Source: Phycisphaeraceae bacterium (GTDB lineage Bacteria > Planctomycetota > Phycisphaerae > Phycisphaerales > Phycisphaeraceae). From it: a stretch of DNA of 64,000 nucleotides. Shown here piece by piece: positions 1,976 through 52,695 of the stretch. Position numbers and translations under genes: made by a program. The DNA is taken from NCBI GenBank assembly GCA_963674705.1, contig OY771506.1, positions 2,592,001-2,656,000 on the forward strand, read 5' to 3'. Below the pieces are notes generated by a model. It ran no database searches. It had not been told where the DNA came from and was given only the letters and a program-made list of their open reading frames with translations. Position 1 is the first letter of the stretch. Every line of letters starts with the position of its first letter.

Positions 1976-3904
1976 TCAACTGATCCCACGCGCTTCCAGT
2001 TCACGCACTTCACGCGACCAGGCATCACGCTGTTCATCCGTAACATCGGGATCGGGCAACAGCGAGCGGCGTGTGCAATTTATCATCGCCTGAAGCGTCT
2101 GATACCGACGGGTCGAGGCAATATCCGGCGGGAGCTGGTCGTGTATCACCGCACTGATGTCATCGAAAGCCAACGGCTTTGATATGGACCGTGCTTTAAG
2201 GTTGGAACGCAGTGAGGCAAACGCCGCGGCTGAGTAACCTTGTGTCAGTTCATCGATGCGCTTGATCTGTCCATCGTTGAGTGTTTCTTTTAATACGCTT
2301 GATAGCACCCAACGGATAAACGCCGCTCGGTCTTCATCTTCAGGATCGAGCACGGGGATAATCAGGTCGCCGACACGCCCGGGGCGACGGATATCGGGGC
2401 TGAGAAGGTGGATGCGTGCGGTCATGAGAAGCCAGATGACGTGGCCGCGCAATGCCGGGTCGGACATCATTTGCTGCACTTTGCCTGTCAAGCGACGTTC
2501 GGTCGCGTGTGCATCCGGACCGACGCCACCGAATTGTGTGTCCGCTTCATCGACGAAGATGACGACCTTGTCGAGAGCCTGAAGCACCCGGCGGAGTTTC
2601 TCGAAGATGACATCGGTTTGCCCGAACCATTGGCTGCGGATGTTTTTCAGTTCGAGGACGGGCAGGTCAAGCGCGGCCGCAACCGCTTCAAAGATAAATG
2701 TCTTGCCGCCACCGATAGGACCAGCCACGGCAGCACCGGGCAAAGCGTCCGCCCCCGTCGATCGGAAGCGGGGCAGCAGTTCATCACGCACGAAGTTTTT
2801 CAGTTGAGTAAATCCGATCACATTATCCAGCGAGTGTTCCGGCTTCTTGAACGCAACGACATCTTCGCCAAGCTGCGTCTGGATGAACGATTCAACCTTG
2901 GCAATCACATCCTGCTGGCGCAACGGCCTGCCTGAATGAGCGGACGCGATCAGCATCTGACGCAACGCATGGATCGAAAGGCCTGCGGAGAATCGTGCAA
3001 GGTCATCGATCGATCCCCAGAGTTCGACCGAATGACCTGAACCGGTCGCGGCCTTGGGCTGGCGCATAAACCAGTCGATGTAATGCTTGCGGTTGTCATA
3101 ATCAGGTGCGCCGACATCGACGCTAAGAACGCTCGGTAGCTTTGATACACGCGGATGCACCAGGCCGACGGATTCACTCAGAAGCAACACGGTGTCGTCA
3201 CCGTTGGTAAAACCGGGATCGGAGAACCAGTCCTGCGCGATACCGATGCGGTGGCGGTCAGGCGAGCCGAGGTTCGCGATGTCGCCGTTGCCGGCAGGCA
3301 GTGCAAGGTCCGCCGCTTCGATCACGATCAACAGGTTGTCACGGATAAACGATTTACCTGATGCGTCTGTCGAACGCGAGCACAACGTCAACTGCCGAAG
3401 AAACTCAAGCGCGAAGGTAGGCCGACCTACGACCTCGCGCAGATTGCGATCGAAGTCCTGCTCCCAGTGTTGCCGTTCACTTGCGCGGTTTTTGTCGGTT
3501 AATGCCTGCAGCACAAGCGTGTCATGGTCAACGCCCGCCTTCCACGAGACCCAGCCCTGGCGCAGCATGTCCCAGCCTTTGTTCGCGCCCATCGTGCTCT
3601 GCAAACGGACCGGGCCGTTCTGTTCGTATACAAGAATCGTCAAGCCATCCATCCGGCAACGGTCGCAGATGTAATCGACCAACGGAACGTACGAGCCGGT
3701 GCTGTCGGCGGTGGGGCTGAAGAACAGGTCATGCACTTCGCCGGCAAGGATGATGCTACGCGATTGTCCAGCATTCACGATACCCGCGAGTTTATTGAAA
3801 AACCTCTTAGCGGAGACATTCGGATCAACCGCGTTAGTCGCTGGCCTGGGTTTCTCCGAACCTTCATCGGGGAGCATCGGCGAATCGTGTTTGGCTGTAC
3901 TCAT
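1976..3904 (-). CDS. AAA+ ATPase (C-terminal classical AAA domain, N-terminal degenerate AAA-like region)
   Basis: Walker A GPIGGGKT, pore loop WFGQTD, Walker B IFVDEAD, arginine finger IRRPGR. Start overlaps the upstream stop (3901-3904). Confidence 0.9.
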   Translation of the reverse strand: MSTAKHDSPMLPDEGSEKPRPATNAVDPNVSAKRFFNKLAGIVNAGQSRSIILAGEVHDLFFSPTADSTGSYVPLVDYICDRCRMDGLTILVYEQNGPVRLQSTMGANKGWDMLRQGWVSWKAGVDHDTLVLQALTDKNRASERQHWEQDFDRNLREVVGRPTFALEFLRQLTLCSRSTDASGKSFIRDNLLIVIEAADLALPAGNGDIANLGSPDRHRIGIAQDWFSDPGFTNGDDTVLLLSESVGLVHPRVSKLPSVLSVDVGAPDYDNRKHYIDWFMRQPKAATGSGHSVELWGSIDDLARFSAGLSIHALRQMLIASAHSGRPLRQQDVIAKVESFIQTQLGEDVVAFKKPEHSLDNVIGFTQLKNFVRDELLPRFRSTGADALPGAAVAGPIGGGKTFIFEAVAAALDLPVLELKNIRSQWFGQTDVIFEKLRRVLQALDKVVIFVDEADTQFGGVGPDAHATERRLTGKVQQMMSDPALRGHVIWLLMTARIHLLSPDIRRPGRVGDLIIPVLDPEDEDRAAFIRWVLSSVLKETLNDGQIKRIDELTQGYSAAAFASLRSNLKARSISKPLAFDDISAVIHDQLPPDIASTRRYQTLQAMINCTRRSLLPDPDVTDEQRDAWSREVRELEARGIS

Positions 3905-4839
3905 ACATTCACACTGCCCGCGGTTTGCCGGCGGGTCCAGAAGTCACGATGTGTTTCAGGATCAGGTGGATTCTCGGGTTCGAACACGATGTTGCGAATT
4001 TCATCACGCTGTGCGACAAACTGCTCAAATTCGCGCGGTGTGTTCGGCTCAAACGTGGGCGCTGCACGGTCGTACACAATCGTCGCTCCGGGGCAGCTAT
4101 CATGGCCCGCGCCTTGATAGTTCCAATACTGGCTTAAACCCAGCACACGGTCACAGATGTACAGCGCTTCGTTCAATTCATGTGTCACCAGCAGGATCGT
4201 ATGCGGCGGAGGCTTGCCTTCGATCTTCGCCCGTGTGTTTTCCTGGTATAGGGTCAGGACCATCCGCTGAAGGTCTTCGCGTGTGGCTTCGTCCAATGCG
4301 CCGAAAGGTTCATCCAATAGCAGAAGCTTCGGCCGCATTACCAATGCCTGTGCGATCGCGACACGCTGGCACATCCCGCCTGACATCTCCGCGGGGTACT
4401 TATCCATCGCATTACCAAGCCCGACTTTTACCAGCAGCTCTTCCGCTTGCCTGATGTGATCCTTCTTCATCATCCGCCACGTTCCCCACTTGAAAACGCG
4501 GAAGGGGATCGTCGTGTGGCGAAGCATCAGGCCGAAGGCGACGTTCTCACGGGCGGTCATGAATTCATACAACGAGTAGCGCTGGTAGACGATCCCGCGG
4601 TCAAAACCCGGGCTCGTTACGACCTTGCCGTCCATCAACACACTGCCGGCTTTCGGCGGGTGTGTTCCCAGGATTGCACGCAACAGAGTTGATTTACCGC
4701 AGCCCGACGGGCCCACGACCGCCACCATCTGACCCCGCTCGATGCTCAAGTTCAGATTGTGCAGCACACGGTTCGTCCCGAACCAATGGCTCAGGCCGTC
4801 CAGGCGGATCACGATGTCGCTGCCGTCGGGTGGATTCAT
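3901..4839 (-). CDS. ABC transporter ATP-binding protein (TauB/SsuB/NrtD type)
   Basis: GPSGCGKST, MSGGM signature, LLLDEPFGALD, VTH. Confidence 0.95.
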   Translation of the reverse strand: MNPPDGSDIVIRLDGLSHWFGTNRVLHNLNLSIERGQMVAVVGPSGCGKSTLLRAILGTHPPKAGSVLMDGKVVTSPGFDRGIVYQRYSLYEFMTARENVAFGLMLRHTTIPFRVFKWGTWRMMKKDHIRQAEELLVKVGLGNAMDKYPAEMSGGMCQRVAIAQALVMRPKLLLLDEPFGALDEATREDLQRMVLTLYQENTRAKIEGKPPPHTILLVTHELNEALYICDRVLGLSQYWNYQGAGHDSCPGATIVYDRAAPTFEPNTPREFEQFVAQRDEIRNIVFEPENPPDPETHRDFWTRRQTAGSVNV

Positions 4840-4847
4840 TTAGCTTC

Positions 4848-5648
4848 TTACCGCCCAAACCAGGGGCACAGTTTTCGACGGGCCGTCAACAAGGCATAAT
4901 CGATCAGGAACCCGCTCGCGCCGAGCAGGCCCAGGTAAAAGTACACGATATTGAAGTTAACCTTTCGTCCTTCCAATCGCAGGCGATACCCGAAGCCCAC
5001 ATCTGCGACGACATACTCAGCTGCGATCAGGAACACCATCGCCGGGCCGATCTGCAATCGCACCGATTCGATCAACCTTGGTAATACCTGCTTGAAGACG
5101 ACATTCCAGATCTGTTCACCCTGCGAAGCGCCGAGCGTCGCCGCTTTATTAAGTAACTCCTCCGGCACATCCTTCTTCGCGGATTGATAGATCGCCTGAG
5201 CCAGCGTCGGTGTGACGCCGAAGACGATCATCGCGATGAAGAAACCCTGGTTGATCCCGACGAGTACGAAGAACACTGCAAGCATTGCGGTGGGGGGGAT
5301 CTTTGCTGCTATGGATAACGGCGTTTGCAGCACCGCTTCCACCGGCGCGTAACACCCCATCGCGATACCGAATACCAACGCCGCGCCGACCGCAATGAAC
5401 AACCCTTCAAATAGCCGGACATAAGTCGCAACACCATCCTCCCACAGGATGATCTCACCGCTACCGGGCTGCGGCGTCACTGACTTTTTGATCCCCTCGC
5501 CGATCTGGCTCCACGTGGGGATCGTGGTGTCGTTGGGGTTCTTATGGTGCTGCCTTACCGACAGCAACGTATAGATGCCGCACAATACCAGCACCGACAC
5601 GATCGCCAGTGTAATCCGCGTGCCGGGCTTGATCGGCCGACGGATCAT
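4848..5648 (-). CDS. ABC transporter permease (TauC/SsuC type)
   Basis: Multiple TM helices, EAA-like loop KAATLGAS, LIAAEY..GFGY motif. Confidence 0.92.
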   Translation of the reverse strand: MIRRPIKPGTRITLAIVSVLVLCGIYTLLSVRQHHKNPNDTTIPTWSQIGEGIKKSVTPQPGSGEIILWEDGVATYVRLFEGLFIAVGAALVFGIAMGCYAPVEAVLQTPLSIAAKIPPTAMLAVFFVLVGINQGFFIAMIVFGVTPTLAQAIYQSAKKDVPEELLNKAATLGASQGEQIWNVVFKQVLPRLIESVRLQIGPAMVFLIAAEYVVADVGFGYRLRLEGRKVNFNIVYFYLGLLGASGFLIDYALLTARRKLCPWFGR

Positions 5649-6766
5649 TCGCCGGCTTCCATGACAGCATCGATATACTGGCTGGTGAAGGTCAGCGGCT
5701 CATCTTTACTACCGCCGTACGCGATCGCGGGTACTTTTTCGATGATCTTGTAGTCCTTGCAGAAGCCGGTGACCTTATCCATCGTTGTGTGAAGTTCCTG
5801 GCTGTCGAACAAAGCTTTAGCCTCGGCCGGCGTCTTGTAGAACTTGGTCTGCTCCACGACGACCTTCATCTTTTCGAGGCCCAGGCTGGAGAACTTCGAG
5901 CCCAGCGCGACGAGCGTCTCATCGCCGGTTTCCGGATCTGCCAGCATTTCGTTGAGTTGATAGAAGGTATCGATCACCGCTTCTGCGAAGCGATCACCAC
6001 CCGGCTTATCCAGTGAATCCTTGGCGGCGACGACCATGTCGATGATTTCACCGGGGATCTTCGTTGAATCGAAGAGCACTTTCGCGTCACTCCGCTGCTT
6101 AAGCGTTTCGAGCACGAACGGGTTCCAGACGACGATAGCGTCATAACCCGCCTGCTGCGTGATCATTGCCTGCGCAGCGGCGGCAGGGTCCATATTCGAG
6201 AAGATATAGTCGGCAGGATTCTCGCCCGCGATTTCAAGGTTGCGCACGAACGTGTACTGCGACACGCTGGCTTCCAGGCCGTAGGCTTTCTTGCCTTTCA
6301 GGTCCTGGATCGTGTCGATCCCCGTGACGATGCAGGCATCGGCGCCGAAGGATGTCGAGGTCGGCAGGATCGCAACCGCGGTTCGGCCCATGGATGGATT
6401 GAGGATGTCCATGTTCGTGATGCAGACCGCATCGACCGCGCCGTTGGCGTACATGTTGATGCACGTGTCGTAATCGGTTTCGTTCAGGACGATGTCGACG
6501 TTCCACTTCTTCTCGACCGGGCCGAGTTCACCTTCCTTGCCGTTGATCAGGCCCTTCATCTCTGCGACGCCGAAGACCGACCATGATGGATATTCGCTCC
6601 AGGCCAGGCTGAAGACCGGCGGAGCTTCATCACCCGCATTCGTTGTGCTGCCGGCTGAACTTTCCGATGGCGAAGATGAGTTGTCGCAACCGCTGGTTAA
6701 AGCAAATGCGCCGACCGTCAGAGCGGCCGCACAAGTTGTAAACAGTTTCGTGGTTCGTGAGTTCAT
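5645..6766 (-). CDS. ABC substrate-binding lipoprotein (NMT1/THI5/TauA-like)
   Basis: Lipobox LTSGC. S.GADA, DLKGKK, WNPF and IPGEIID motifs of PBP-II SBPs. 4-bp overlap with the permease. Confidence 0.88.
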   Translation of the reverse strand: MNSRTTKLFTTCAAALTVGAFALTSGCDNSSSPSESSAGSTTNAGDEAPPVFSLAWSEYPSWSVFGVAEMKGLINGKEGELGPVEKKWNVDIVLNETDYDTCINMYANGAVDAVCITNMDILNPSMGRTAVAILPTSTSFGADACIVTGIDTIQDLKGKKAYGLEASVSQYTFVRNLEIAGENPADYIFSNMDPAAAAQAMITQQAGYDAIVVWNPFVLETLKQRSDAKVLFDSTKIPGEIIDMVVAAKDSLDKPGGDRFAEAVIDTFYQLNEMLADPETGDETLVALGSKFSSLGLEKMKVVVEQTKFYKTPAEAKALFDSQELHTTMDKVTGFCKDYKIIEKVPAIAYGGSKDEPLTFTSQYIDAVMEAGE

Positions 6767-6822
6767 GGTATGGATTCCCGAAAAGTATTCTTTGGGTATT
6801 CAGTGCACGTCTAATTGGTGGC

Positions 6823-7665
6823 TCAGCCCTCGGGCAGTTTGGTTTCCGGCTTATCGATCATTTCGTTCGGCATCTCGGCCGATTCCTTGCTGTCGGTTTC
6901 ACCGGCCAGACCGATCAACTTGTTGAACTCGTCGGTCGCGACGTTGGTGCGGGCGTATTCGAGGAACTCGGCTTCCTGTTGCAACGTATCTGTGCCCGCC
7001 ATCTCGCGGGAGATCCTCGCTTCGGCCTTCTGTTGCTGACGTAAGTCACGCAGTTCCTGCAACTCCTGCGAGGTGCGGTCCTGGCTGATCCCGCTGATCA
7101 TGTCGGCGACCTCTTCCTCTTCTTTCGCGGTAATCATGTCCGCTACTGCTGAGGAGGATTCTTCCTTCAGCTTGTCCAGATCACGCAGCAGTTGCTGCAA
7201 CTGAACCTTATGCCCGCCGATCGTGTTGGTCAGTTCAGCGACATCGCTTTCCAGTTCGCTGATCCGGTCGCTCTTCTCCGCGATTGTGGAAGTAAAGTCA
7301 TTGAACGCGGTCATGCATTTGAGGTATTCCTCGTTCTGCTTGATCTGCTCAAGCGACATACCCTGACCCTTGAGCTGCTCGACGACCTTCCTGGCTTTCG
7401 CGGCCGCGCCTTCCTTGAGCTTCTCAAGATGCGATACCTCCTGGCTGAGCGATTTGACCTTGGCCGCCTTCTTCTCCTGCTGACCGATCATGCGGGAGAC
7501 CGCTTCCTTATATTGATGGATGCGGTCGCGCTTCTCGCGGATGATCCGGTCGTAGCTGGCCTGCACGACGTAAGGGTTCTTGCTCAGTTCCTGACGTGCG
7601 CGGTCGATCCGCCCGGTGACGAGGTAACCCAGGGCCCGAATGTATCTGCCGATGGCTCTAAACAC
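6823..7665 (-). CDS. PspA/IM30 (Vipp1)-like coiled-coil protein
   Basis: Amphipathic N-terminal helix (MFRAIGRYIRAL), Pro after the first helix (KNP), long heptad coiled coil, 280 aa. Confidence 0.7.
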   Translation of the reverse strand: MFRAIGRYIRALGYLVTGRIDRARQELSKNPYVVQASYDRIIREKRDRIHQYKEAVSRMIGQQEKKAAKVKSLSQEVSHLEKLKEGAAAKARKVVEQLKGQGMSLEQIKQNEEYLKCMTAFNDFTSTIAEKSDRISELESDVAELTNTIGGHKVQLQQLLRDLDKLKEESSSAVADMITAKEEEEVADMISGISQDRTSQELQELRDLRQQQKAEARISREMAGTDTLQQEAEFLEYARTNVATDEFNKLIGLAGETDSKESAEMPNEMIDKPETKLPEG

Positions 7666-7712
7666 GTTTACGCTCCTATCGGTGGGGGGCGGTCGTCCGC
7701 CCGGTGTTCTAG

Positions 7713-8459
7713 CTACTCGCTATCTCTGATGCTCGGATTCAGTTCCGTTTCCAGTTCGTTCATCCGCCGTTCAACGCGCCGTGCGACGTTGAGGTTTTCT
7801 TCCAGCTCTTGCCGCATGCTCGCCAGGTCCGCGCCGGGTGTGGTTGTATCCAGCCCCAGCGTGTGCAGGCCGTCGATTGTCTTGGCGATCTGCGTGATGC
7901 TCTTGTCTACCTCGACTAATACTTTCTCTCGCTTTTCCAACACCTCGCGTCTTGCCGCTTCTGTCAATACTTTTTGTGACGTCTCCCACAGCTTGTACGA
8001 ACCCTTAAGCGACTGATACGACGAATCCAACAACCTCTGTACTGTACCAGCGATCTCGACCGGTGGGGTGCGCGGCGTCTTGCTCGGGTCCATCAGGTCC
8101 CTGAACCGATCCGCCAACACCCGCAGCGTTTTCAGAGCCTGTCCCGTCCACGGGTCCTCGTCTTTCTCCAGCTGCGCCGCTAGTTCGTCCAGTTCACGTT
8201 CCTTTTGGGCAGCCATCTGTTCGTGTGCCCGAAGAAACACACGCTTGGCGATCTTGTCCCTGCTTATGATCCATCGTGTGACCAATGCTCCGGAGCCGGC
8301 CAGCAGGCTCATCACACCCGCGAAAGCAAGCAATTGTGTCGCTGCGCCTACCGCCCATGAAACCAGTAATAACGTCAAACCCAACGCGGCGGGCAACAGC
8401 ACAAACGGCGACATCGCCAGATCGAGCAAGACCTGTTTTCGGAAGCTCGATCCGTCCAT
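7713..8459 (-). CDS. Membrane protein with two N-terminal TM helices and a helical cytoplasmic domain
   Basis: 248 aa, two hydrophobic segments then charged helices. GAGGAG RBS. Confidence 0.8.
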   Translation of the reverse strand: MDGSSFRKQVLLDLAMSPFVLLPAALGLTLLLVSWAVGAATQLLAFAGVMSLLAGSGALVTRWIISRDKIAKRVFLRAHEQMAAQKERELDELAAQLEKDEDPWTGQALKTLRVLADRFRDLMDPSKTPRTPPVEIAGTVQRLLDSSYQSLKGSYKLWETSQKVLTEAARREVLEKREKVLVEVDKSITQIAKTIDGLHTLGLDTTTPGADLASMRQELEENLNVARRVERRMNELETELNPSIRDSE

Positions 8460-8472
8460 AACTCCTCAATGA

Positions 8473-10167
8473 TCAGTAGGGTGTTTGTCCAAGAATAAAA
8501 CGAACGGTCTGGGCTTCACCGCCCTCGGCCTCGGGCTCTGTCCCGATCGCACGCACACGCTCGACGGCGATGCCTTTCTCGATCAGGTACGCCGCTGCCG
8601 CCTCGGCCCGGCTCATCGCCAGCGCCCGGTTGGCTTCCGCATCCCCTTCGACCCGCGCCGATCCACGTATCGACACGTAGTAATGAGGCCAGGTATGCAG
8701 CGATTCGGCCAGCCGATCGAGCTCGAACTTGCTCTGCCGGGTCAGTATAGCGGTGCCCCGCGCGAACACAATCGGTCTGACACGCAGCGTGCCCACCGGA
8801 CGCAGCTGTTCCCATTGCTTGTCATTGAGCGCTTCAACCTTGAACGATCTCGCCTCGCCCGCATCCACATCACCGGGCTGGCGGACCAGCGACGGGTGGA
8901 AGTCGCTATCGCGCATCGTTTTCAGGATGCCGTCGTAGTACAACACGCTCGGATTACTCACCGAAGACGCCGAGTCGATCGCCCCCGTCTTCAGCAGCAC
9001 CGATGCAATGTTCCGGATCACTTCATCCAGGGGCTGAATCTCGCTGGCCTGTCCGCTAGACGTCAGACCCATATGTGCGTAGTTTTCCTGTGTGGTTTTC
9101 CACCACACCCCTTCGACCAGCTTATCAGCTTGTTTGGCGGTCAGCGGTTCACCGCTTTGTTTCGCGTCTTCCCGAACCGCTTGCGCCAATCCGCCACCAG
9201 CTCGACGCTGGTCATACAGCGTCCGCAGGTAGGTCTCGACGACCGCACGGACTGTGTCTTCATGCTCCAGTAAAAACTCACGGCTGACGACCAGCGTATC
9301 CACGATGTATCCGCGGAATCGAGAACTGTCGATCAGGATATGAGCGCCGTCTTTTTCCAGGGCTTTGCTGACGTAAGGCTCCCACAAGACATAGGCGGCC
9401 TTCTGTGATCGATCCGCCTTCTCAAAGCGTCGCAGCACATCGGCTGCGCCATCCGCCCGGACGAACGGATCGCTCGGTAGCTTGTCCAGTTGGAAACTCG
9501 CCATCACGACTTGCGCCAGTGTCGTGCTGGGCGATTCGGGGGTGGCGATGATCTTCGCGGTGGGGGAGTTCAGGGCATCGATATTCGGGACAGCTGATTC
9601 GTAGGCAACCATGGCATCCGCGCCGGTGGTTTCATCAATAATCATGACCGCGGTCACAGGCGCTTCACCCAGTTTAGCGGTCGCTTTTACAAGGCCGTCG
9701 AGTGTGAACACCGCCATCGGCGCTTCGCCGGTGCGCAGGGCTTTCATACGCTGGCTGTAGTCGGCCTGATCGTCTACTAAGTCAAGCTCGATGCCGCGCA
9801 GGGCGAGTTCTTCTTTAAATGCTTCGCTACGGAAAACCCAGTAGCCGGAAAAAGCGTCCAGCGATAAACGCAGCGTCAGTTTCTTGCCGCTATCGCTGAC
9901 CTTGACGCCGGTCAGACGCAGTTCCAGTTCCTGTGCCATCTGTCGGAGTGTCGCGGCGTCTGCGCCTTTGGGCGCTTCGTCGGGTGTGAGGCCGCGCTGC
10001 CGAGCCAGCTCGCATAGCTCTTCATAATCCTGCAATTGCTCTGCGACATCCTCACGCTCGTGCATCCAGGGCGAGACGATGAATTTATACGACACCGCCG
10101 CCAGCGCTACGATCACGATCCAGACGATCACAACTTTCAACAGACGCGCGGAGCCGCCACTACTCAT
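8473..10167 (-). CDS. Membrane-anchored NMT1-like substrate-binding domain fused to a C-terminal OmpA-like domain
   Basis: N-terminal TM, DETTGADA and LWEP SBP motifs, C-terminal F..G / NRALAMSRAEA OmpA-like motifs. ATG at 10167 overlaps the vWA stop (ATGA). Confidence 0.85.
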   Translation of the reverse strand: MSSGGSARLLKVVIVWIVIVALAAVSYKFIVSPWMHEREDVAEQLQDYEELCELARQRGLTPDEAPKGADAATLRQMAQELELRLTGVKVSDSGKKLTLRLSLDAFSGYWVFRSEAFKEELALRGIELDLVDDQADYSQRMKALRTGEAPMAVFTLDGLVKATAKLGEAPVTAVMIIDETTGADAMVAYESAVPNIDALNSPTAKIIATPESPSTTLAQVVMASFQLDKLPSDPFVRADGAADVLRRFEKADRSQKAAYVLWEPYVSKALEKDGAHILIDSSRFRGYIVDTLVVSREFLLEHEDTVRAVVETYLRTLYDQRRAGGGLAQAVREDAKQSGEPLTAKQADKLVEGVWWKTTQENYAHMGLTSSGQASEIQPLDEVIRNIASVLLKTGAIDSASSVSNPSVLYYDGILKTMRDSDFHPSLVRQPGDVDAGEARSFKVEALNDKQWEQLRPVGTLRVRPIVFARGTAILTRQSKFELDRLAESLHTWPHYYVSIRGSARVEGDAEANRALAMSRAEAAAAYLIEKGIAVERVRAIGTEPEAEGGEAQTVRFILGQTPY

Positions 10168-11150
10168 GATGACGCTTTCCTCACAATGGCCACAAAGATT
10201 TTCAGTGCTACCATCAGCACAACCACCCAGATGATAATGGCAAAAAACCAACTACCTGCACTCGTGCCGCCACCGCTGCTGTGATTGGTGGTTGTGGTAT
10301 GTGTTGCGGCGGCATGGTTCGTATTGTGGGTGTTGGAAGTAGCCGTGGGATTCGTCCAGGCTTTTGAACTTTTGATCGGCTCATTGTTGCTCGTGGTCAA
10401 AGCAGTCAGCAGGCCTTCCGCCATGTTGTCGGGCAAGGCGGCGATCAATTCGAAGCTTTCGTCGTCTGTGGCCGTGTCGTCTACAGCCGATCCGATCTCC
10501 GCGACCGATTCCATGATGGCTTCACGCAACGCCTCGGCGTCATTAGCCCGACGGTAGTTGTGAACGCGGGTCGCCAGGGCATGATCGCCATCCATCGCGA
10601 CACCGATCACATCGATGACGATGCCGCGCGATAGCGCATCGGGCGTGAACTGCTGCACCTTACCCGAATCGCTTGCCTGGCCGTCCGTCACAATCAACAG
10701 GCGGTACGTACCGTAACCGTGCTGTTCGGTCCGTTTTTCCAAGAGCCGATCGGCGCCGATCCGGATGTATTCGCCTAACGGTGTTCCGCCATCGGGCCCA
10801 AGCCGCATCAGGTCTTTGGAAAACGTGCTTTTATCCAAAGGCCCAAGCGGGTAGACCCAGTCGCTTTTCTTGTTATTTCCGCTGAATACAAGCAAGCCGA
10901 CGTGCGTCTTCGGCTCGACCTGTTCCATGACATTCAATAACGCTTCCTTGGCAACTTCCATCTTACGTTTGTTGCTGCCGGGCATCATTTCCGCCATCGA
11001 GCCCGAGGCGTCCAGGATCACCACGATGTTGTCCACAGCATCTTCGTCAGGTGTATCCTGACCAATAGCTGCTGTGTTAAACAACATCACAACCACGCAG
11101 GTAAATATCGCCCACAATCGGTTGTTCTTTTTCAAGAGCGTGCTCATCAT
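10164..11150 (-). CDS. Secreted von Willebrand factor A domain protein with C-terminal TM anchor
   Basis: MIDAS DASGS, GGTPL, IVTDG. Signal peptide, Thr/His-rich linker, C-terminal TM followed by RK. Confidence 0.9.
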   Translation of the reverse strand: MMSTLLKKNNRLWAIFTCVVVMLFNTAAIGQDTPDEDAVDNIVVILDASGSMAEMMPGSNKRKMEVAKEALLNVMEQVEPKTHVGLLVFSGNNKKSDWVYPLGPLDKSTFSKDLMRLGPDGGTPLGEYIRIGADRLLEKRTEQHGYGTYRLLIVTDGQASDSGKVQQFTPDALSRGIVIDVIGVAMDGDHALATRVHNYRRANDAEALREAIMESVAEIGSAVDDTATDDESFELIAALPDNMAEGLLTALTTSNNEPIKSSKAWTNPTATSNTHNTNHAAATHTTTTNHSSGGGTSAGSWFFAIIIWVVVLMVALKIFVAIVRKASS

Positions 11151-11180
11151 CCCGGATCCCTTCTTGTTGATGCACATCAA

Positions 11181-13007
11181 TTAGAAGTCGAAGTCACTCG
11201 GCCGAACCGCCTCGGCGGGCACCTTGATCAAGCGGAACTCGACTCGCATGTTCTGCTTGGCTTCGTTGAGATTCGTCGGCTTGGCGATCAACGGCTCGGA
11301 AACGCCCACACCCACCGGCTGGATCTGGCTGGCGTCCAGCGTCAGGCCCTGCGCCTTGGCGAAAGTCACGATCGCATCACGCACGGCTACCGCACGGGCC
11401 CGGGACAGGTTCAAAGCCGCCTGCATCGTTTCACGCGGATTATTCGAATCGCCATCGAATGCGCCGCTTTCAATCAGGTCGACAATCTTCTGGGTGTCCG
11501 TCAGATCGAGCGGGCGTTGATTGAAGTAATACTGCCAGTTCCCGCTTGAGCCGGACCGTTTGAGGATGCCTTTGCTAAGCCCCGCTTTCACCAGGTCAGA
11601 CAGTGTGCGCGTCGGATCGGAGTGGCCGCGGATCGCAATCACCGCGTTGCCGAACGTCGAGGCACTTTCCACCGCACGGCGGAACTCCGGCCCATAGACA
11701 TCCGCGCTGAACTCGTCCTGATTCGGCTCGAAGCTGATCGTAAACGCAACGATGACGTTCTCATCACCCTTGGCAAGATCGGGAAAATCTTCGACCGTCT
11801 CCGCCAGGATGCGGCCCTGTCCCGAACCGGTGACACGCTCAAGTCCGCCGAGTTTCGCGATCTTGTTGTAATCGAAGCTCGGTCCGAAGAAGCCCGCACG
11901 TTGCTTGGCATAACCCAGACTCACCGCCAGATCGAGTGCGGCACGCTGTTTGGCTTCGAAGCCCGACAGGTTGCCTTCATCTTCATAGAAAGAGATGTTA
12001 CCCGGCAGGCCGACAAACGTGCAGTCCAACAGCAGGCCGTGTGCATCGACTTCCAGCGTCGGCAGCACTTCTTCACCGAGGATCTGCTGTGCAAGTTTCA
12101 GCGTATCCATGTAGCCGTCTGCGCTGCCGGTTTCCTCGAACTTGTTACGCATCGCTACGAGCTGCTCGGCTCCTTTGAAGTAGCCGGCGACAAACTTCTC
12201 AACCAGCTCACGATTCGCATCGAAGTAATCTTTACGCACCGCATAGACATCCGCGATCGATCGACTCATCTGCGCGGTCGAGATCAGCACGTGTGCGCCT
12301 TTGATCGTGCCCTCCGCGCCGCTGCCGGTCTGTTCCAACCCACCGGTCAGGCCGATCATGTCCGGCGTGATCACGCAGCAGGCGTCGATCGACTTATCCT
12401 TACGCATCAACTCCGCCGGTCCGTTGGGTCCCGACAAATCGTCAACCCAGACAACTTCGATGTCGTCCCATGTCAATTGCGCAACACGCAACGCATCGTC
12501 CAGCATGCCAACGTGTGGCCCGCCCTGTTGCAGCGCGACCTTGGAACCTTTGAGTTGTTCGAGCCGTGTCAGGCCTTCACGTGACACGATGTGGTCACCC
12601 GCTGACCACGTCAGTTGCATAAAGACGACCGGCTTGGTCCGTGGATCGGAACCCAGCACTTCCGATGCCTGGCCGATCATGCGCAGCGTCCCCCGGAGGA
12701 ACGGCGTGTCACCTTGCCGGTATCGACGGACCTGCTCGATAAAGTCGTCGCCGTTGACCAGCTTGAGTTTCAGCCCGAGTTTGCCGTAGATGCTGTCGGA
12801 TGATGTGGTCACGCCGCCGTTGGCGTAGAACGTCGCCACGTCGCCGCCCCAGGTGATGAAAGGCACCTCGATGGTGTCGGTATTCTTGACCGAGCCCACC
12901 CGCACATCACCGACCAGATCGGAGAACGGCTGGGCGTTTGCCAGCGAACCGGTAATCAGGAATTGGACAGCGAGGCAGAGGACGACAAGCTGACGCACAA
13001 ATCGCAT
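11181..13007 (-). CDS. Secreted NMT1-like substrate-binding domain fused to an OmpA-like domain
   Basis: Signal peptide MRFVRQ..ANA, WSAGDH SBP region, RGHSD, NLSRARAVAV and NMRVEF OmpA motifs. GGAAAGGA RBS before ATG 13007. Confidence 0.87.
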   Translation of the reverse strand: MRFVRQLVVLCLAVQFLITGSLANAQPFSDLVGDVRVGSVKNTDTIEVPFITWGGDVATFYANGGVTTSSDSIYGKLGLKLKLVNGDDFIEQVRRYRQGDTPFLRGTLRMIGQASEVLGSDPRTKPVVFMQLTWSAGDHIVSREGLTRLEQLKGSKVALQQGGPHVGMLDDALRVAQLTWDDIEVVWVDDLSGPNGPAELMRKDKSIDACCVITPDMIGLTGGLEQTGSGAEGTIKGAHVLISTAQMSRSIADVYAVRKDYFDANRELVEKFVAGYFKGAEQLVAMRNKFEETGSADGYMDTLKLAQQILGEEVLPTLEVDAHGLLLDCTFVGLPGNISFYEDEGNLSGFEAKQRAALDLAVSLGYAKQRAGFFGPSFDYNKIAKLGGLERVTGSGQGRILAETVEDFPDLAKGDENVIVAFTISFEPNQDEFSADVYGPEFRRAVESASTFGNAVIAIRGHSDPTRTLSDLVKAGLSKGILKRSGSSGNWQYYFNQRPLDLTDTQKIVDLIESGAFDGDSNNPRETMQAALNLSRARAVAVRDAIVTFAKAQGLTLDASQIQPVGVGVSEPLIAKPTNLNEAKQNMRVEFRLIKVPAEAVRPSDFDF

Positions 13008-13251: not shown

Positions 13252-13323
13252 AGCGGGTGAAGGGGCTCGAACCCTCAACATTCAGCTTGGGAAGCTGACA
13301 CTCTACCATTGAGTTACACCCGC
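13252..13323 (-). tRNA. tRNA-Gly (CCC)
   Basis: Reverse complement GCGGGTGTAACTCAATGGTAGAGTGTCAGCTTCCCAAGCTGAATGTTGAGGGTTCGAGCCCCTTCACCCGCT folds as a cloverleaf with anticodon CCC. CCA is not encoded. Confidence 0.97.
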
Positions 13324-16303: not shown

Positions 16304-17647
16304 ATGAATATCGTCATCTGTGGAGCGGGTGAGGTCGGTCGGCACTGTGCCGAGGTCCTCGCCGCACAAGGCCACAACATTACCGTCATCGATCAGCTCA
16401 ACGAGAAACTCGAAGAGCTCGACGAAATCCTCGATGTCCGCAACCTCGAAGGCAACGCGGTCCACGCTGATATCCTTCTGGAGGCCGGCGCCGCCAAGGC
16501 CGACCTCGTCATCGCCGCCATGGACAGCGATGAGTTGAACCTGCTCTCCGCTTCCATCGCCAAGGCCCTCGGCGCCGCCAAGGTCATCGCCCGTATCCAT
16601 CACTCCGCCTACTTTGAACGGCGTGGCATGGACTATGCCCGCCACTTCGGGATCGACCACGTCGTCTGCCCCGAGTTCTCTACCGCCTTGGCCATCGCCT
16701 CCACTCTCCGCAGCCCCGGCTCTCTCGCGATCGAGCAGTTCGCACGTGGGCAGGTCGAGATGCAGCAGTTCCCCGTCTCCGACAGCGCCAAAGCGATCGG
16801 TAACAAACTGGCATCCCTGAAGCTGCCCGCCTCATCCCGCCTCGCCGCGGTTGAACGGCAGGGCCAGGCCTTCCTGCCCAGCGCGGACACCATGATCGAA
16901 AAAGGCGACATCGTCACGCTCATCGGTGAGGCCTCCGGCTTCGACAAGGCCCGGAAGATCTTCGACACCGAAACCAGCAACAACCGACGCGTCATGATCC
17001 TGGGCGGCACCTCCCAGTGTGTCTGGGTCTGCCGAGCCCTCAAGGACCGTGGTTTCTCGATCCGTGTTTTTGAAACCAATGAAGCACGGGCCGAGGTGCT
17101 TGCTGAGAAGCTCGACTGGTGCACCATCCTGCACACCGACGCGATCAACACCGACGCCTTGATGGATGAGCGTGTCGACCTGGCCGACGTCTTCATCGCG
17201 CTGACCGAAGACGAGGAGCGAAATATCCTCGCCGCCGCCCGCGCCAAGAGCATGGGCGTTAAGAGTGCGGTGGCCCTGCTGCAGCGCCCGACTTACCAGC
17301 ACCTGCTGGGACACATCGGCATCGACAAGTCCTTTAGCCCGCGCAGCAGTGCGGTGACCGAAGTCCTGCGTCTGATGGAGACAGGGCCGATCAAGCACCT
17401 GGCGACCATGGCCGAGAAAATCGCGGAAGTGTACGAATTGAAAGTCCCGGCCGGGGAAGGCAAAGCCGTCAACCGCCCGCTCAAAGAGATCAAACTACCC
17501 GCCAACACGATGCTTGCCGCGGTTCAACGTGACGACGAGGTTTTCATCCCCGGAGCCGACAGCCAGATCGAGCCCGGTGACACCGTCATCGCCATCGCCC
17601 CCGCCGCCGCCAAGAAAGAACTACGCAAACTTTTCATCGGCAAGTAG
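16304..17647 (+). CDS. trkA: Trk potassium uptake NAD-binding subunit
   Basis: MNIVICGAGEVG Rossmann motif, two RCK_N/RCK_C pairs, 447 aa. Confidence 0.95.
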   Translation: MNIVICGAGEVGRHCAEVLAAQGHNITVIDQLNEKLEELDEILDVRNLEGNAVHADILLEAGAAKADLVIAAMDSDELNLLSASIAKALGAAKVIARIHHSAYFERRGMDYARHFGIDHVVCPEFSTALAIASTLRSPGSLAIEQFARGQVEMQQFPVSDSAKAIGNKLASLKLPASSRLAAVERQGQAFLPSADTMIEKGDIVTLIGEASGFDKARKIFDTETSNNRRVMILGGTSQCVWVCRALKDRGFSIRVFETNEARAEVLAEKLDWCTILHTDAINTDALMDERVDLADVFIALTEDEERNILAAARAKSMGVKSAVALLQRPTYQHLLGHIGIDKSFSPRSSAVTEVLRLMETGPIKHLATMAEKIAEVYELKVPAGEGKAVNRPLKEIKLPANTMLAAVQRDDEVFIPGADSQIEPGDTVIAIAPAAAKKELRKLFIGK

Positions 17648-17659
17648 AGACACAAAGCA

Positions 17660-17720
17660 GTTAGCCATCAGCCCTTAGCTAATGGCTTCTGTCTACACCC
17701 TACACCCTAAACCCTACACC
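17660..17720. repeat. Short heptamer repeat patch (TTAGCCA-like plus CCCTACA-like)
   Basis: ttagccatcagcccttagctaatggct followed by ctacaccctacaccctaaaccctacaccct. Confidence 0.7.
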
Positions 17721-17727
17721 CTGCCCC

Positions 17728-19269
17728 ATGAACATCCGTTACGTCATCCGTGAACTCGGCCTGGTCATGATCGTGCTGTGCCTTTGCATGATCGCGGTCA
17801 TGGGCTGGTCTGCATGGGAGTGGGCGGGGGGCAACTCAGAAGAAAAAGTCGCAACACTTTCGATGCTGATGGGCGCAGCGCTGGGTGCGGTGCTGGGTTT
17901 GTTCTGTTGGCTGTTCGGCAGTCGAAGCGGTAAGGATTATCTCGGACAGCGAGAGGCTTTGCTCCTGGTGACGACATCCTGGTTTCTCGCCGCGGCCGTT
18001 GCCTGTCTGCCGTATTACCTGTGGGCATGGCTCGAAGAAGGCGCCGGGGCAAGCCACCCCTTCGCTTCGTTTATCTCCTGTTACTTCGAGTCAGTGAGTG
18101 GCCTGACAACCACCGGAGCAACCATCCTCAGCGATGTCGACATGATTCCCAAGAGCCTGCTGCTCTGGCGTGCAACGACGCACTGGCTGGGCGGGCTTGG
18201 CATCGTCGTGTTATTCGTCGCGATCCTGCCTACGTTGGGTGTCAGTGGTAAACGACTGTTTCAGGCGGAAGTCCCCGGACCGCAGCAGGACGGCGTACGC
18301 CCACGCATCCGTGAAACCGCTCGCATCCTCTGGCTGATCTACCTCGGCCTGACTATCGTGCAGGTCCTGATGTTGAAAGTTGCCGGCATGAACTGGTTCG
18401 ACTCGATCTGCCACACCTTCGCTACACTCGCCACCGGCGGCTTCGGCACACACAACGCCAGTGTCGGCTATTACGACAACTGGAAGATCGAGATGATCAT
18501 CTTTGTCTTTATGGTGATCGCGGGCATCAACTTCGGTTTGTATTACAACCTCGTCCGGGGTCGCTGGCGCATGGCGGTGCGCGACCCGCAGATGATTGTC
18601 TACCTCTGCATGCTGGGCGTATCCATCGCGGTGATCGCCGGGTATCTCTACGGCCATACCATCACACTTACCACCGGCCAGGAACGTGAGGTCGGCGTGC
18701 TCGGTGCACTGCGTTACAGCTCGTTCCAGGTCGGCTCGATCCATAGTGATTGCGGCTTCGCGACCGCGGATTACGATCAATGGTCTTACCTGCCGAAAAC
18801 CATTCTCATGCTGGGTATGTTCTTCGGCGGTTGTGCCGGTTCAACCAGCGGCGGACTGAAAATCAGCAGGCTTATCGTGCTGTTCAAACTCATCGCGGCG
18901 GATATCGAGCGTGCGTTTAGGCCGAGTGTGGTTAGAACCGTCCGGGTCGGCGATGATGTGGTAGACCAGGCTGAACGTCAATCGGTTTTGATGTACACCG
19001 TTCTGACAATCTTGGTGCTCGGTATCGCAACCATTGTGGTTCGAGTGGTCGAAGATAGTGCAGGGCTCAGCCTGACCGAATCCGGCTCAGCGGTATTAGC
19101 CTGCTTCACCAATTGCGGGCCGGGGTTGGGTATCGTTGGACCGACGGGGAACTTCGGTGTACTGCATTTATTCACTCAGGCATTACTCTGTATCGTGATG
19201 GTGTTGGGTCGACTCGAAGTCTATGCGGTACTGGTCCTGCTCAGGCCCGCATTTTGGCTGGCTGACTGA
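17728..19269 (+). CDS. trkH: TrkH potassium uptake membrane protein, paralogue 1 (divergent pore motifs)
   Basis: FESVSGLTTTGAT, WLGGLGI, ATGGF and GSTSGGLK motifs. Confidence 0.92.
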   Translation: MNIRYVIRELGLVMIVLCLCMIAVMGWSAWEWAGGNSEEKVATLSMLMGAALGAVLGLFCWLFGSRSGKDYLGQREALLLVTTSWFLAAAVACLPYYLWAWLEEGAGASHPFASFISCYFESVSGLTTTGATILSDVDMIPKSLLLWRATTHWLGGLGIVVLFVAILPTLGVSGKRLFQAEVPGPQQDGVRPRIRETARILWLIYLGLTIVQVLMLKVAGMNWFDSICHTFATLATGGFGTHNASVGYYDNWKIEMIIFVFMVIAGINFGLYYNLVRGRWRMAVRDPQMIVYLCMLGVSIAVIAGYLYGHTITLTTGQEREVGVLGALRYSSFQVGSIHSDCGFATADYDQWSYLPKTILMLGMFFGGCAGSTSGGLKISRLIVLFKLIAADIERAFRPSVVRTVRVGDDVVDQAERQSVLMYTVLTILVLGIATIVVRVVEDSAGLSLTESGSAVLACFTNCGPGLGIVGPTGNFGVLHLFTQALLCIVMVLGRLEVYAVLVLLRPAFWLAD

Positions 19270-19303
19270 TTACGAACGAATCATAAAGTCTTAGCTTAAA
19301 TAT

Positions 19304-20845
19304 ATGAACATCCGTTACGTTATCCGAGAACTTGGTTTGGTTCTGATCGTGCTGTGCTTGTGCATGGTTGCGGTGATGGGCTGGGCGGCCTGGCAGTGGG
19401 CGGATGGCAACGCGGATGAACGCCTGGCCATGCTCTCGCTTTTGATGAGCACCGCCGCCGGCGCGATCCTCGGTTTATTCTGCTGGCTGTTCGGCAGCCG
19501 AAGCGGCACGGACTTTCTAGGCAAACGTGAAGCCTTACTGCTGGTCGCCCTCTGTTGGCTCATCGGCGCTGCCGTCGCGGGCCTGCCTTATTACCTCTGG
19601 GCATGGATGGAGCAATCCAAGCTCGCCGAGCACGCCTTCGGCTCATTCAGCTCCTGTTACTTCGAATCCATGAGCGGCCTGACCACCACCGGGGCGACCG
19701 TCCTCAGCGATGTCGACTCCATCCCCAAGGGGTTACTGCTCTGGCGCGCGACGACGCACTGGCTGGGTGGTCTGGGTATCGTCGTCTTATTCGTAGCCGT
19801 GTTGCCTACTCTCGGTGTCGGCGGCAAGAAGCTTTTCCATGTCGAAGCCCCAGGCCCGCAGCAGCAGGGCGTGCGTCCGCGCATCAAGGAAACCGCACGA
19901 ATCCTCTGGCTCATCTACCTCATGCTCACCATCATCCAGACCGTGTCACTGCGCTTGGCAGGCATGGACTGGTTTGATGCCGTCTGCCACACGTTCGCAA
20001 CGCTCGCAACGGGCGGATTCAGTACACACAACGCCAGCATCGGCGGTTACAACAGTTGGATGATCGATATTATCACGATCGTCTTCATGATCCTGGCTGG
20101 TGTGAACTTCGGCCTTTATTACCAACTCGCTCGCCGCCGGTTCGACATGATCTGGAAAGACCCGGAGCTGCGCGTCTACCTGGGCATCATCTTCGTAGCG
20201 ACCGTACTGATCTCGGTCAGCATCTACGGCAAAACCACCACGTTCATGGACGGCTCCAAACACGAACTGGGCGTCGCCGAATCTGTCCGCCATAGCGCCT
20301 TCCAGGTCGCTTCCATCCAGACCACGACCGGCTTCTCCACAGCCGACTTCGATCTCTGGGGCTTCGTCCCGCAGGCGGTACTCGTCACGCTCATGTTCAT
20401 CGGCGCTTCGGCGGGTTCGACCGGCGGCGGCATCAAGGTCATCCGTATCATCATCGCCGCCAAGGTCATGTACGCGGAGTTGGAACGCGTCTTCAGACCG
20501 AATGTCGTGCGTACGATCCGCATCGGGAAAAGCGCGATCGATCCCGAATTGAAGCAGGGCGTTCTGGTTTATGTGCTGCTGATCCTGCTGCTGTTCCTGG
20601 GCGGGACGGTCGGGTTGATGCTCATCGAGCCGGCGGGATCGCTGGACTTCGGCTCCGCCGCCACTGCCAGCGCCGCGACGCTCAACAACATCGGCCCCGG
20701 TTTGAGCAAGGTCGGGGCAACGCAGAACTACGGCTTCTTCAGCGCGCCGGCCAAGATACTTTTGAGCATGCTCATGGTCCTGGGCCGGCTTGAAGTCTAT
20801 GCCGTCCTCGTGCTGTTGCGTCTGGCTTTCTGGACGGGTGATTAG
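19304..20845 (+). CDS. trkH: TrkH potassium uptake membrane protein, paralogue 2 (canonical)
   Basis: TTTGAT, ATGGFS, TTTGF, GSTGGGIK, NNIGPG and GRLE motifs. Confidence 0.95.
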   Translation: MNIRYVIRELGLVLIVLCLCMVAVMGWAAWQWADGNADERLAMLSLLMSTAAGAILGLFCWLFGSRSGTDFLGKREALLLVALCWLIGAAVAGLPYYLWAWMEQSKLAEHAFGSFSSCYFESMSGLTTTGATVLSDVDSIPKGLLLWRATTHWLGGLGIVVLFVAVLPTLGVGGKKLFHVEAPGPQQQGVRPRIKETARILWLIYLMLTIIQTVSLRLAGMDWFDAVCHTFATLATGGFSTHNASIGGYNSWMIDIITIVFMILAGVNFGLYYQLARRRFDMIWKDPELRVYLGIIFVATVLISVSIYGKTTTFMDGSKHELGVAESVRHSAFQVASIQTTTGFSTADFDLWGFVPQAVLVTLMFIGASAGSTGGGIKVIRIIIAAKVMYAELERVFRPNVVRTIRIGKSAIDPELKQGVLVYVLLILLLFLGGTVGLMLIEPAGSLDFGSAATASAATLNNIGPGLSKVGATQNYGFFSAPAKILLSMLMVLGRLEVYAVLVLLRLAFWTGD

Positions 20846-32236: not shown

Positions 32237-33506
32237 AGAGCTGGTCCCCAAATCTTGGACAGCCGGTTAAAGTGGGCTGGTCTGCAGATTTGAAAGGACT
32301 TACTTGATGAGCAAGCGACGACGATTTACGGCTGAATTCAAGGCGAAGGTGGCGCTGGAGGCGCTGCGTGGCGAGTTGACGGTGGCGGAGATCGCCAAGA
32401 AGTACGACGTGCATCCGAACATGATCGGCGGGTGGAAGAAGCTGCTGGCACAGGAGGCGGCCCAGCTTTTTGCCCGTGGCGGCGGCAAGGACCCGCAGGC
32501 ATCCGACGAGCAGATCAAAGAGCTGCACGCGAAGATCGGCGAGCTGACCATCGAGAAGGACTTTTTAAAAAAAGGGTTGGGGCTTTGAGCCACGGCCGCC
32601 GCTGCGACATGGTCGAACCCAAGCACCCCGAGCTGAGCATCGTGCGTCAGTGTGGGCTGGTGTCGATCAGCCGATCGTCGTTTTACTTTTCAGGCAAAGG
32701 CGAGAGCCCGTTGAACCTGAAGCTGATGCGTCTGATCGACCGACAGTTCCTGTGCACGCCGTTCTACGGCAGCCGGCAGATGATGCGTTGGTTGCGTCGG
32801 CTTGGCTACAACGTCGGCCGCAAGCGTGTGCGTCGATTGATGCGCCAGATGGGTTTGACGCCGATCTACCAGGCCCCGAAGACCAGCGTCAAATGCCTTG
32901 AAAACAAGGTGTATCCGTACCTGCTGCGGAATCTGAAGATTGATCAGCCGGGTCATGTGTGGTGCGCCGACATCACATACATCCCGATGCGACGCGGCTT
33001 TTTGTACCTCGTTGCGGTCATGGACTGGCACAGCAGGAAGGTGCTGGCCTGGCGATTGAGCAACACGATGGAAGCGTCATTCTGCGTCGAGGCGTTGGAA
33101 GAAGCGCTGAGCAAGCACGGCCCGCCGCAGATCATCAACACCGATCAGGGCAGCCAGTTCACCGGCCTGGAATGGACCGAAACAGTGAAGAGCGCGGGCG
33201 CGAAGGTATCGATGGACGGCAAAGGCCGATGGATGGACAACGTGTTCATCGAACGTCTGTGGCGGAGCCTGAAGTACGAATGCGTGTACCTGCACGCGTG
33301 GGACAGAGGCAGCGAAGCTCGCGCCGGGATCAATGAATGGCTGCGGTTCTACAACACCGAGCGTCCGCACTCGACACTCGCTGGACGGACGCCGGACGAA
33401 GCGTATGATGGAAAACCTATAACCGGACCGCCGCTGGCCGCGGCATAAACCCGTTGGCCCACCTTATTCAGGCCAACCGGCTGTCCAAGATTTGGGGACC
33501 AGCTCT
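32237..33506 (+). mobile_element. IS3-family insertion sequence, 1270 bp
   Basis: Perfect 32-bp terminal inverted repeats AGAGCTGGTCCCCAAATCTTGGACAGCCGGTT, CAA duplicated on both sides, orfA/orfB organisation. Confidence 0.95.
32307..33448 (+). CDS. IS3 transposase OrfAB (-1 programmed frameshift)
   Basis: OrfA HTH (RRRFTAEFKAKV, 32307-32588). A7G slippery site at 32567-32574. OrfB in the -1 frame with WCADITY, NTDQGSQF and IERLW DDE motifs. Confidence 0.93.
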
Positions 33507-37082: not shown

Positions 37083-37160
37083 CTTCTGCCTTCAATCGGC
37101 TTGTGATTTTCAAATGAAAATGCCCGAACTGAGGAAGTGGGGCGGCAATACCATTTTTTA

Positions 37161-37194
37161 CACCCGACACCCGACACCCGACACCCGACACCCG
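37161..37194. repeat. Heptamer tandem (CACCCGA)x~5
   Basis: Read directly from the sequence. Confidence 0.85.
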
Positions 37195-52663: not shown

Positions 52664-52695
52664 GGGTGGTCTGGGTGGTTTTCCAGCAATCGCGA

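Follow-up and report, generated by a model that had tools for sequence, protein, structure and literature searches.

A conserved nine-gene cassette combining a highly divergent PspA-family protein, a tandem AAA+ ATPase and an ABC importer in a Phycisphaeraceae bacterium

Gene Content of the Locus

We characterized a gene cassette in a 64,000-nucleotide (nt) window of the genome of a Phycisphaeraceae bacterium (GCA_963674705.1; contig OY771506.1, positions 2,592,001 to 2,656,000). Nine intact open reading frames (ORFs), without stops or frameshifts, follow one another on the minus strand from position 13007 to 1976 and are named A to I in reading order (Table 1). The intergenic gaps from A to I are 30, -4, 13, 47, 56, -4, 8, and -4 nt, the first being measured to the probable ATG of the vWA gene at 11150, and at each of the three -4 junctions (10164-10167, 5645-5648, and 3901-3904) the stop and start codons overlap in ATGA. 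An original prediction on this DNA had described nine co-oriented genes with precisely these overlaps. Family scans of the window proteins detected NMT1 and OmpA in A and C, VWA in B, an NMT1/TIGR03427-like match in F, BPD_transp_1 in G, ABC_tran in H, and AAA in I, and gave no meaningful match for D and E. The solute-binding, OmpA, vWA, permease, ABC, and AAA assignments of the original prediction were thus recovered, with two refinements: the PspA-like protein has no Pfam match of its own, and the AAA+ protein comprises two domains. The closest named relative of the locus, at 97-100% identity, is a Phycisphaeraceae genome. The cassette is a larger variant of a PspA operon type that was predicted in 2024, and both the type and a hypothesis on its function are already published (Ravi et al., 2024; PMC11237479).

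Table 1. Genes of the cassette and the tRNA gene upstream of it.
Feature	Description	Position	Strand	Remark
Gene A	608 aa; signal peptide, NMT1/SsuA-type binding domain, OmpA-like domain with long insertion	11181..13007	-	
Gene B	about 328 aa; signal peptide, vWA domain, C-terminal transmembrane (TM) anchor	10164..11150	-	
Gene C	564 aa; N-terminal TM anchor, NMT1-type binding domain, OmpA-like domain	8473..10167	-	
Gene D	248 aa; two N-terminal TM helices and compact cytoplasmic helical bundle	7713..8459	-	
Gene E	280 aa; divergent PspA/Vipp1 (ESCRT-III superfamily)	6823..7665	-	
Gene F	373 aa; lipoprotein solute-binding protein, NMT1/SsuA/TIGR03427-like group	5645..6766	-	
Gene G	266 aa; TauC/SsuC-type ABC permease	4848..5648	-	
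Gene H	312 aa; TauB/NrtD-type ABC ATPase	3901..4839	-	
Gene I	642 aa; tandem classical AAA+ ATPase, degenerate N-domain, active-type C-domain	1976..3904	-	
tRNA-Gly(CCC)	tRNA gene	13252..13323	-	ARAGORN and Rfam; context, outside the conserved cassette

A Divergent PspA Protein

At its gathering score, the Pfam model PF04012 (PspA_IM30) matched neither gene E nor any other protein of the genome. Relatives of E were collected by scanning one genome per species, which gave 150 confirmed stretches, of which the best 80 were kept as loci. The Pfam model matched 24 of 84 close homologues at E-values of 0.1 or lower (best 4e-4) and 4 of 53 distant homologues at 1e-4 or lower, the best reaching 30.5 of the 33.9 bits. 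When a profile of 138 diverse members (the window protein and 137 of the 150 listed among 570 family representatives at 50% identity, kept by length) was aligned by hhalign to a profile of 17 Pfam-positive canonical PspAs, the probability was 96.1% and the E-value 3.4e-9, vs. 0.039 for the reversed control. The alignment is colinear over 212 columns, pairing E residues 8-250 with PspA residues 2-213. Against the PspAs of the six-gene operons described below, the E-value was 6.5e-12 (reversed control, 0.026), and a narrow E profile was far weaker (5e-4, or 0.15 vs. a single sequence). Because of this profile-profile comparison, which runs end to end with canonical PspA, we place E by sequence in the PspA/ESCRT-III superfamily as a highly diverged member, in line with the original prediction.

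The predicted structure of E comprises helices at residues 2-16, 31-100, and 112-241, which form a long hairpin with a low-confidence tail, and the hairpin tip carries an insertion of ~25 amino acids (aa) in the model. A Foldseek search with this model ranked Vipp1 first (E-value 2.5e-3), and in a wide search PspA was level with unrelated coiled coils. Helix 0 is strongly amphipathic, with residues 1-16 showing the highest hydrophobic moment among 264 windows of the protein. At the opposite end, an L-P-[E/Q] C-terminus follows a variable linker in all 80 E loci, although the tail was not part of the scan patterns, and a looser [LI]P[EQD] terminus occurs in 75 of the 138 diverse representatives. 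The PspAs of the six-gene operons lack this tail, and a second E copy in the same genome, which has no adjacent I gene, ends in KLRE. The L-P-E/Q tail is described here as a candidate docking tag for ATPase I.

The proteins of the E group, with 570 representatives at 50% identity, make up a separate clade that falls below the Pfam threshold. Since this genome holds two copies of the clade and zero Pfam-detectable PspA, surveys based on PF04012 undercount bacterial ESCRT-III proteins.

The Tandem AAA+ ATPase

The N-terminal half of I aligns to its C-terminal half (E-value 3.2e-5; reversed control, 0.29), and the Walker A and B motifs of the N-terminal AAA domain are decayed. In the C-terminal half, all 50 aligned rows carry a GPxG[GSA]GK[TS] Walker A, a DEAD Walker B, RPGR arginine fingers, and an aromatic [WY][FY]G pore loop (WFG/YFG/WYG), so that the core features of the classical AAA clade, aromatic pore loop and arginine fingers, are present. 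At what we take to be the sensor-1 position, all 50 rows have Ala, and distant homologues have Cys, Ser, or Ala. An in-frame TAG interrupts the I gene in one assembly (locus L088, G005:C57:10240-12048).

The original prediction had proposed a dedicated disassembly ATPase by reference to Vps4. The dedicated ATPase survives in our best reading, but Vps4 identity is ruled out. Family scans of I gave no match to MIT or Vps4_C, the CdvC model scored 40 bits against a cut-off of 650, the protein is a tandem AAA with a dead first domain, and its best relatives in the PDB are VAT and p97 at 1e-20 to 1e-21, with Vps4 only at 1e-8. A MoxR-vWA chaperone pair formed by I and B was rejected as well, since I matches classical AAA and not MoxR models, and B has a signal-like segment and a C-terminal TM segment that place it in a different compartment from a cytoplasmic vWA partner.

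A PspA protein next to an AAA+ protein also brings to mind PspA and PspF, which restrain each other in Proteobacteria according to the accessible text of a 2025 review (PMC7619361). By that logic, monomeric E would inhibit I until membrane stress recruits E and frees I for another target. We regard this as very improbable, given that family scans found no DNA-binding or sigma-54 activator domain in I and that I has a translocating pore loop.

Conservation of the Cassette

Gene order was counted in the 45 of the 80 loci that have at least 6 kb of flank on both sides, the 35 shorter loci being excluded, and since carrier genomes are often kin the counts represent non-independent events. Genes A to I occur in order in 23 of these 45 loci, which include Planctomycetota, Verrucomicrobiota, Desulfobacterota, and Acidobacteriota. 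Thirteen loci have E and I only, three have D-E, three have A-F, and single loci have A-E plus I, B-E, or A-H. Protein identity across relatives is 28-76% (the near-identical L001 excluded), and the genes flanking the cassette, including its upstream neighbors, vary. Because order is kept across phyla at this level of identity while the flanks vary, the arrangement is more than chance. The association of ABC, PspA-like, and AAA genes on which the original prediction depended is thus widespread in other genomes.

In an even sample of 201 genomes from the phylum, E is present in 10, and an I homologue of at least 35% identity occurs in exactly the same 10; I homologues of 28-34% identity are found in 7 further genomes. 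Among 56 loci with 6 kb or more of flank, 47 have the I gene downstream of E, and in five of five tested genomes chosen for an E without adjacent I, an I orthologue was located elsewhere. Gene A at 50% identity or above occurs in 7 of the 201 genomes, 6 of them with E, and was not found in five of five genomes chosen for E without the transporter (E-I or D-E only), which are metagenome-assembled genomes (MAGs) and may be incomplete. D was found elsewhere in the genome in only one of four genomes with E but no neighboring D. A Pfam-positive PspA lies within 5 kb of the more distant I homologues in 3 of 7 genomes, and of the distant A homologues in 8 of 13. On the basis of E-I co-occurrence and of the loci and genomes without the transporter, E and I are a fixed core, and the periplasmic and transport genes are a frequent but separable module.

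Such separability raises the question of whether the two parts are only loosely linked: a solute importer and a PspA-ATPase repair pair might share a promoter for the same condition with no physical coupling. The parts do separate in some genomes, and F-like importers are common alone, a TIGR03427 match being present in 34 of the 201 genomes. We nevertheless find this explanation clearly improbable, as D and E are embedded among the transporter genes, the stop of the ABC ATPase gene overlaps the start of the AAA gene, the order survives in four phyla, and the six-gene type has the same gene classes in a different order.

Several variant loci were noted. In several Verrucomicrobiota cassettes (L061:12032-12448, L063, L068, L077, and L080), a gene of ~140 aa with no Pfam match lies between F and G. 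In two loci (L030:11355-12740 and L037:10986-12233), a HEAT-repeat protein is encoded after a D-E pair, and I lies at another place in the genome. One cassette is rearranged, with I ahead of A and H on the opposite strand (L089:7418-17687). Finally, a sister cluster with the order F-G-H-A-B-C (L131:6632-17552) contains a binding protein close to TIGR03427 (286 bits), along with a gene that faintly resembles D; it has no adjacent PspA, and the PspA-AAA pair of that genome lies on another contig (L113).

A Second Genomic Context

The second E copy (locus L081, G000:C1:4619763-4629180) lies outside the window, after YqiJ-like and flotillin-like genes and a gene for a 1879-aa giant AAA protein of the DUF3686 family, the flotillin label resting on a Band_7 match in a 57% identical homologue. 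Within Phycisphaerae, the E-I pair also occurs in such YqiJ-flotillin-DUF3686 operons, where the transporter is absent; DUF3686 lies upstream of E and I downstream in 17 of the 80 loci, most of which have the YqiJ-like and flotillin-like genes. In a quick maximum-likelihood tree with midpoint rooting, these 17 loci and the second E copy form one group among the Phycisphaerae copies, with a Shimodaira-Hasegawa-like approximate likelihood ratio test (SH-aLRT) support of 100. An association of PspA with YqiJ, flotillin, and a beta-propeller/coiled-coil/AAA protein is described in the accessible text of PMC11237479; the arrangement seen here resembles it in the second E copy and the 17 loci behind the DUF3686 giant AAA, and differs in that the PspA belongs to the E clade and is usually accompanied by the tandem AAA I. 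Three loci (L017:8912-9853, L025:8752-9750, and L044:8889-9851) have an ORF of ~320 aa with no Pfam match between DUF3686 and E. In another family, an E-I pair is divergent from a flotillin-DUF3686 operon (L090:1-10945), possibly a second flotillin association.

The two contexts bear on a further explanation, in which I would be a p97-like segregase acting on membrane-protein clients such as the permease, D, or flotillin partners, and PspA would act as scaffold or adaptor, marking the site and keeping the membrane sealed during extraction or assembly of the clients. Both contexts encode large membrane complexes, the solved structures closest to I are those of p97/VAT, the L-P-E tail might serve as an adaptor tag instead of a substrate tag, and a part in the assembly of membrane complexes is also suggested in the accessible text of PMC11237479. 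Against this, I tracks E and not the transporter: the 13 well-flanked loci noted above keep I and E without the other seven genes, and A was missing from all five E-I or D-E-only genomes, with the same proviso of MAG incompleteness. We therefore consider the segregase unlikely, and prefer the reading in which E itself is the substrate of I.

Periplasmic and Transport Proteins

Gene A matches Pfam NMT1 at 20.6 bits and OmpA weakly. Its OmpA motifs are well conserved, with RGH[AST]DP in 33 of 33 sequences and the LS..RA-type motif kept, and its identity is 55-72% across phyla. Gene C has the reverse profile, with an OmpA match at 4.5e-11 and a weak NMT1 match; the canonical Arg of its OmpA domain is kept, and in the window protein another Arg takes the place of the canonical Asp, the most frequent variants in an alignment of 40 rows having G[QHS][TA]R for GHxD. 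Taking the Asp and Arg of OmpA to be the residues of the peptidoglycan-binding pocket, only A keeps both. Of the OmpA wall tethering in the original prediction, the part concerning A is compatible with these residues, A being predicted to be periplasmic and wall-binding, and C lacks the Asp. A further OmpA-like domain protein on the minus strand of the window (52666-53670; G000:C1:2644696-2645601) is a weak match of the gene C profile.

Gene B matches VWA at 4.9e-13 and has an intact metal ion-dependent adhesion site (MIDAS), with DxSGS in 28 of 29 sequences (one gap) and TDG in 29 of 29; from its hydrophobic segments at 12-30 and 305-323, the vWA domain is predicted to face the periplasm. Gene F scores 162 bits to TIGR03427, below the equivalog cut-off of 334, and has a WSEYPSW motif in 42 of 42 sequences, the outline of which recurs in stand-alone importers. 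By hhalign, C and F are clear paralogues (E-value 4e-11) and A is more distant, so by sequence A, C, and F contain paralogous binding domains. Homologues in the six-gene operons score higher to A than to C, making A the nearest to their single binding-protein::OmpA fusion. Gene G matches BPD_transp_1 at 8e-11 and TauC at 4e-20 and has five hydrophobic segments, and gene H matches ABC_tran at 9e-33 and ntrCD at 1e-52, with Walker A, Q-loop, signature, Walker B, and H-loop all present in its translation. As judged from these motifs, G and H are a complete importer core. F, G, and H belong to the same transporter class as the TauABC/SsuABC/NrtABCD and TIGR03427 (urea-carboxylase-linked) importers, but fall below the equivalog cut-offs, and the cassette differs in having three binding domains, two of them OmpA-fused. 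No riboswitch was found in the window or in seven loci.

Three binding domains for one permease could also indicate sensing, as the original prediction proposed with its wall-tethered sensors. The binding-protein::OmpA fusions and the vWA protein would respond to a ligand or to envelope distance and, by way of D or the ABC core, trigger PspA assembly, with transport secondary. BceAB-type sensing transporters are a precedent; moreover, A is conserved across phyla as much as E and I, and the architecture of C spans membrane to wall. The proposal did not hold up well, and we judge it distinctly unlikely: the cassette contains no kinase or regulator, the catalytic motifs of the ABC ATPase are complete, F, G, and H look like common importers of the stand-alone kind, the OmpA Asp is missing from C, and E and I persist without the periplasmic genes.

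The Two-TM Partner of PspA

The AlphaFold model of D has a predicted local distance difference test (pLDDT) score of 85 and shows two TM helices and a compact bundle, for which structure searches gave no convincing fold match. Its nearest named Atlas cluster is Rv2743c/PspM (score 0.88, 186/256 features), with the family on 12% of the cluster members. For the two-TM partner of a six-gene operon, Rv2743c/PspM was the second Atlas row (0.87). A hidden Markov model (HMM) search of the genome with PF25587 did not match D, and between D and the two-TM partners of the six-gene operons no significant homology was found, the profile alignment failing its reversed control. D resembles the mycobacterial PspA-PspM pair (Rv2744c-Rv2743c) in being a two-TM helical protein encoded beside PspA, and in its Atlas features; it differs in having no HMM support, and the loci differ in that there is no ClgR here and that the mycobacterial locus has no ATPase or transporter. 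PspM holds a PspA species at the membrane, as stated in the accessible part of a recent report (10.64898/2026.09.09.750162). D is likely the membrane anchor of E, with PspM as a lead, and it points weakly to PspM and not to Snf7.

Comparison with Known Systems

The accessible text of Ravi et al. (2024; PMC11237479; example OGG56892.1) describes a six-gene operon type predicted from genomes, composed of PspA, a two-domain AAA protein with an inactive first copy, a TM "Snf7" protein, an ABC ATPase, a permease, and a PBPB-OmpA protein. It advances the hypothesis of ATP-dependent membrane remodeling tied to transport, and leaves the regulation of PspA assembly open. We recovered three operons of this layout from the phylum sample (L116, L119, and L121), in which E has its homologue in the PspA, A in the binding protein, G in the permease, H in the ABC ATPase, and I in the tandem AAA. 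The present cassette has the defining content of the type, namely PspA with a two-domain AAA whose N-terminal copy is inactive, shared motifs including the non-Asn sensor-1, and an ABC ATPase, permease, and PBPB-OmpA protein in the operon. The "Snf7" protein and D have the same TM-plus-helical layout, but their profile comparison fails the reversed control. In contrast to the published type, there are nine genes instead of six, in a different order; the additional ones encode a membrane-anchored vWA protein, another binding-protein::OmpA fusion, and a binding protein that is a lipoprotein. E also differs from the six-gene PspA in its separate clade below the Pfam threshold, its hairpin insertion, and its L-P-E tail. 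The term vWA is absent from the text and supplement of PMC11237479, whose web application may list nine-gene cases, and one locus of six-gene layout (L116) has a vWA gene after its AAA gene. The original prediction knew of no characterized system of this composition: the type and its hypothesis prove to be in print, while the vWA protein and the two extra binding proteins are absent from that text and supplement. Our literature search, which mostly did not cover subscription papers, found no experimental study of the cassette system.

The comparison with ESCRT-III and Vps4 of eukaryotes, or CdvB and CdvC of archaea, is one of function. In both, an ESCRT-III-superfamily protein is found beside a classical AAA+ protein with an aromatic pore loop, and a short conserved C-terminal motif is borne on a flexible tail. 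MIT-interacting motifs are such motifs on flexible ESCRT-III tails. Unlike Vps4, I has no MIT or Vps4_C match and is a tandem AAA with a dead first domain. By inference, the cassette may work like ESCRT-III/Vps4 as an analogue, and not as an orthologue or a member of the Vps4 family. A Vps4-like ATPase is apparently absent from bacteria according to the accessible text of the 2025 review (PMC7619361), and archaeal ESCRT loci include a binding protein and an SPFH protein, as given in the accessible text of Makarova et al. (PMC10936438).

Proposed Mechanism

Homology, motifs, topology signals, and co-inheritance are the observations from which we start. Our best reading, on which we are evenly balanced between acceptance and doubt, is that I recycles E polymers through their C-terminal tail and D anchors E, the whole forming a module beside a wall-tethered importer. 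We favor it because of the PspA-family membership of E, the E-I linkage, the L-P-E tail, helix 0, the flotillin context, the PspM lead for D, and the hypothesis of Ravi et al. (2024). E would bind the inner membrane through helix 0, polymerize, and coat or bend the membrane, while D would hold E there as PspM does in mycobacteria. I would thread the C-terminal tail of E and so recycle PspA polymers, as Vps4 does for ESCRT-III, and its dead AAA ring or its pore might read the L-P-E tail. A, B, and C would form a periplasmic assembly, tied to peptidoglycan through A and to the inner membrane through B and C, that passes a small solute to G and H. Overall, the system could use ATP to maintain or reshape the inner membrane locally around large membrane-protein assemblies, these being the importer in this cassette and flotillin complexes in the second context. 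In E and I, this reading would offer a two-protein, soluble candidate for a bacterial PspA disassembly motor.

A bolder version, which we consider a long way from probable though worth stating, is a bacterial counterpart of ESCRT-III/Vps4 built from a p97-like tandem AAA+ protein. The dead ring would replace MIT and read L-P-E, the PspM-like protein would nucleate the polymer, the vWA, binding-protein, and OmpA parts would span the periplasm and pin the site to the wall, and bending would be coupled to both the capture and the uptake of cargo. Membrane pits or invaginations occur in planctomycetes.

Other Features of the Window

The tRNA-Gly(CCC) gene lies 245 nt upstream of the operon, and in a search of the genome its 3′ end had no partial copy in the vicinity of the operon, such as would mark an integrated element. 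Further along the window, a TrkA-like gene is followed by two tandem 513-aa TrkH-like genes (16304-20845; read from translation). A stretch of lower guanine-cytosine (GC) content has an IS3-type integrase gene and a KAP-family P-loop NTPase gene (32432-33448 and 37114-38721), and positions 41378-45313 encode a glycoside hydrolase of 1311 aa that contains F5/8 and ricin-type lectin domains.

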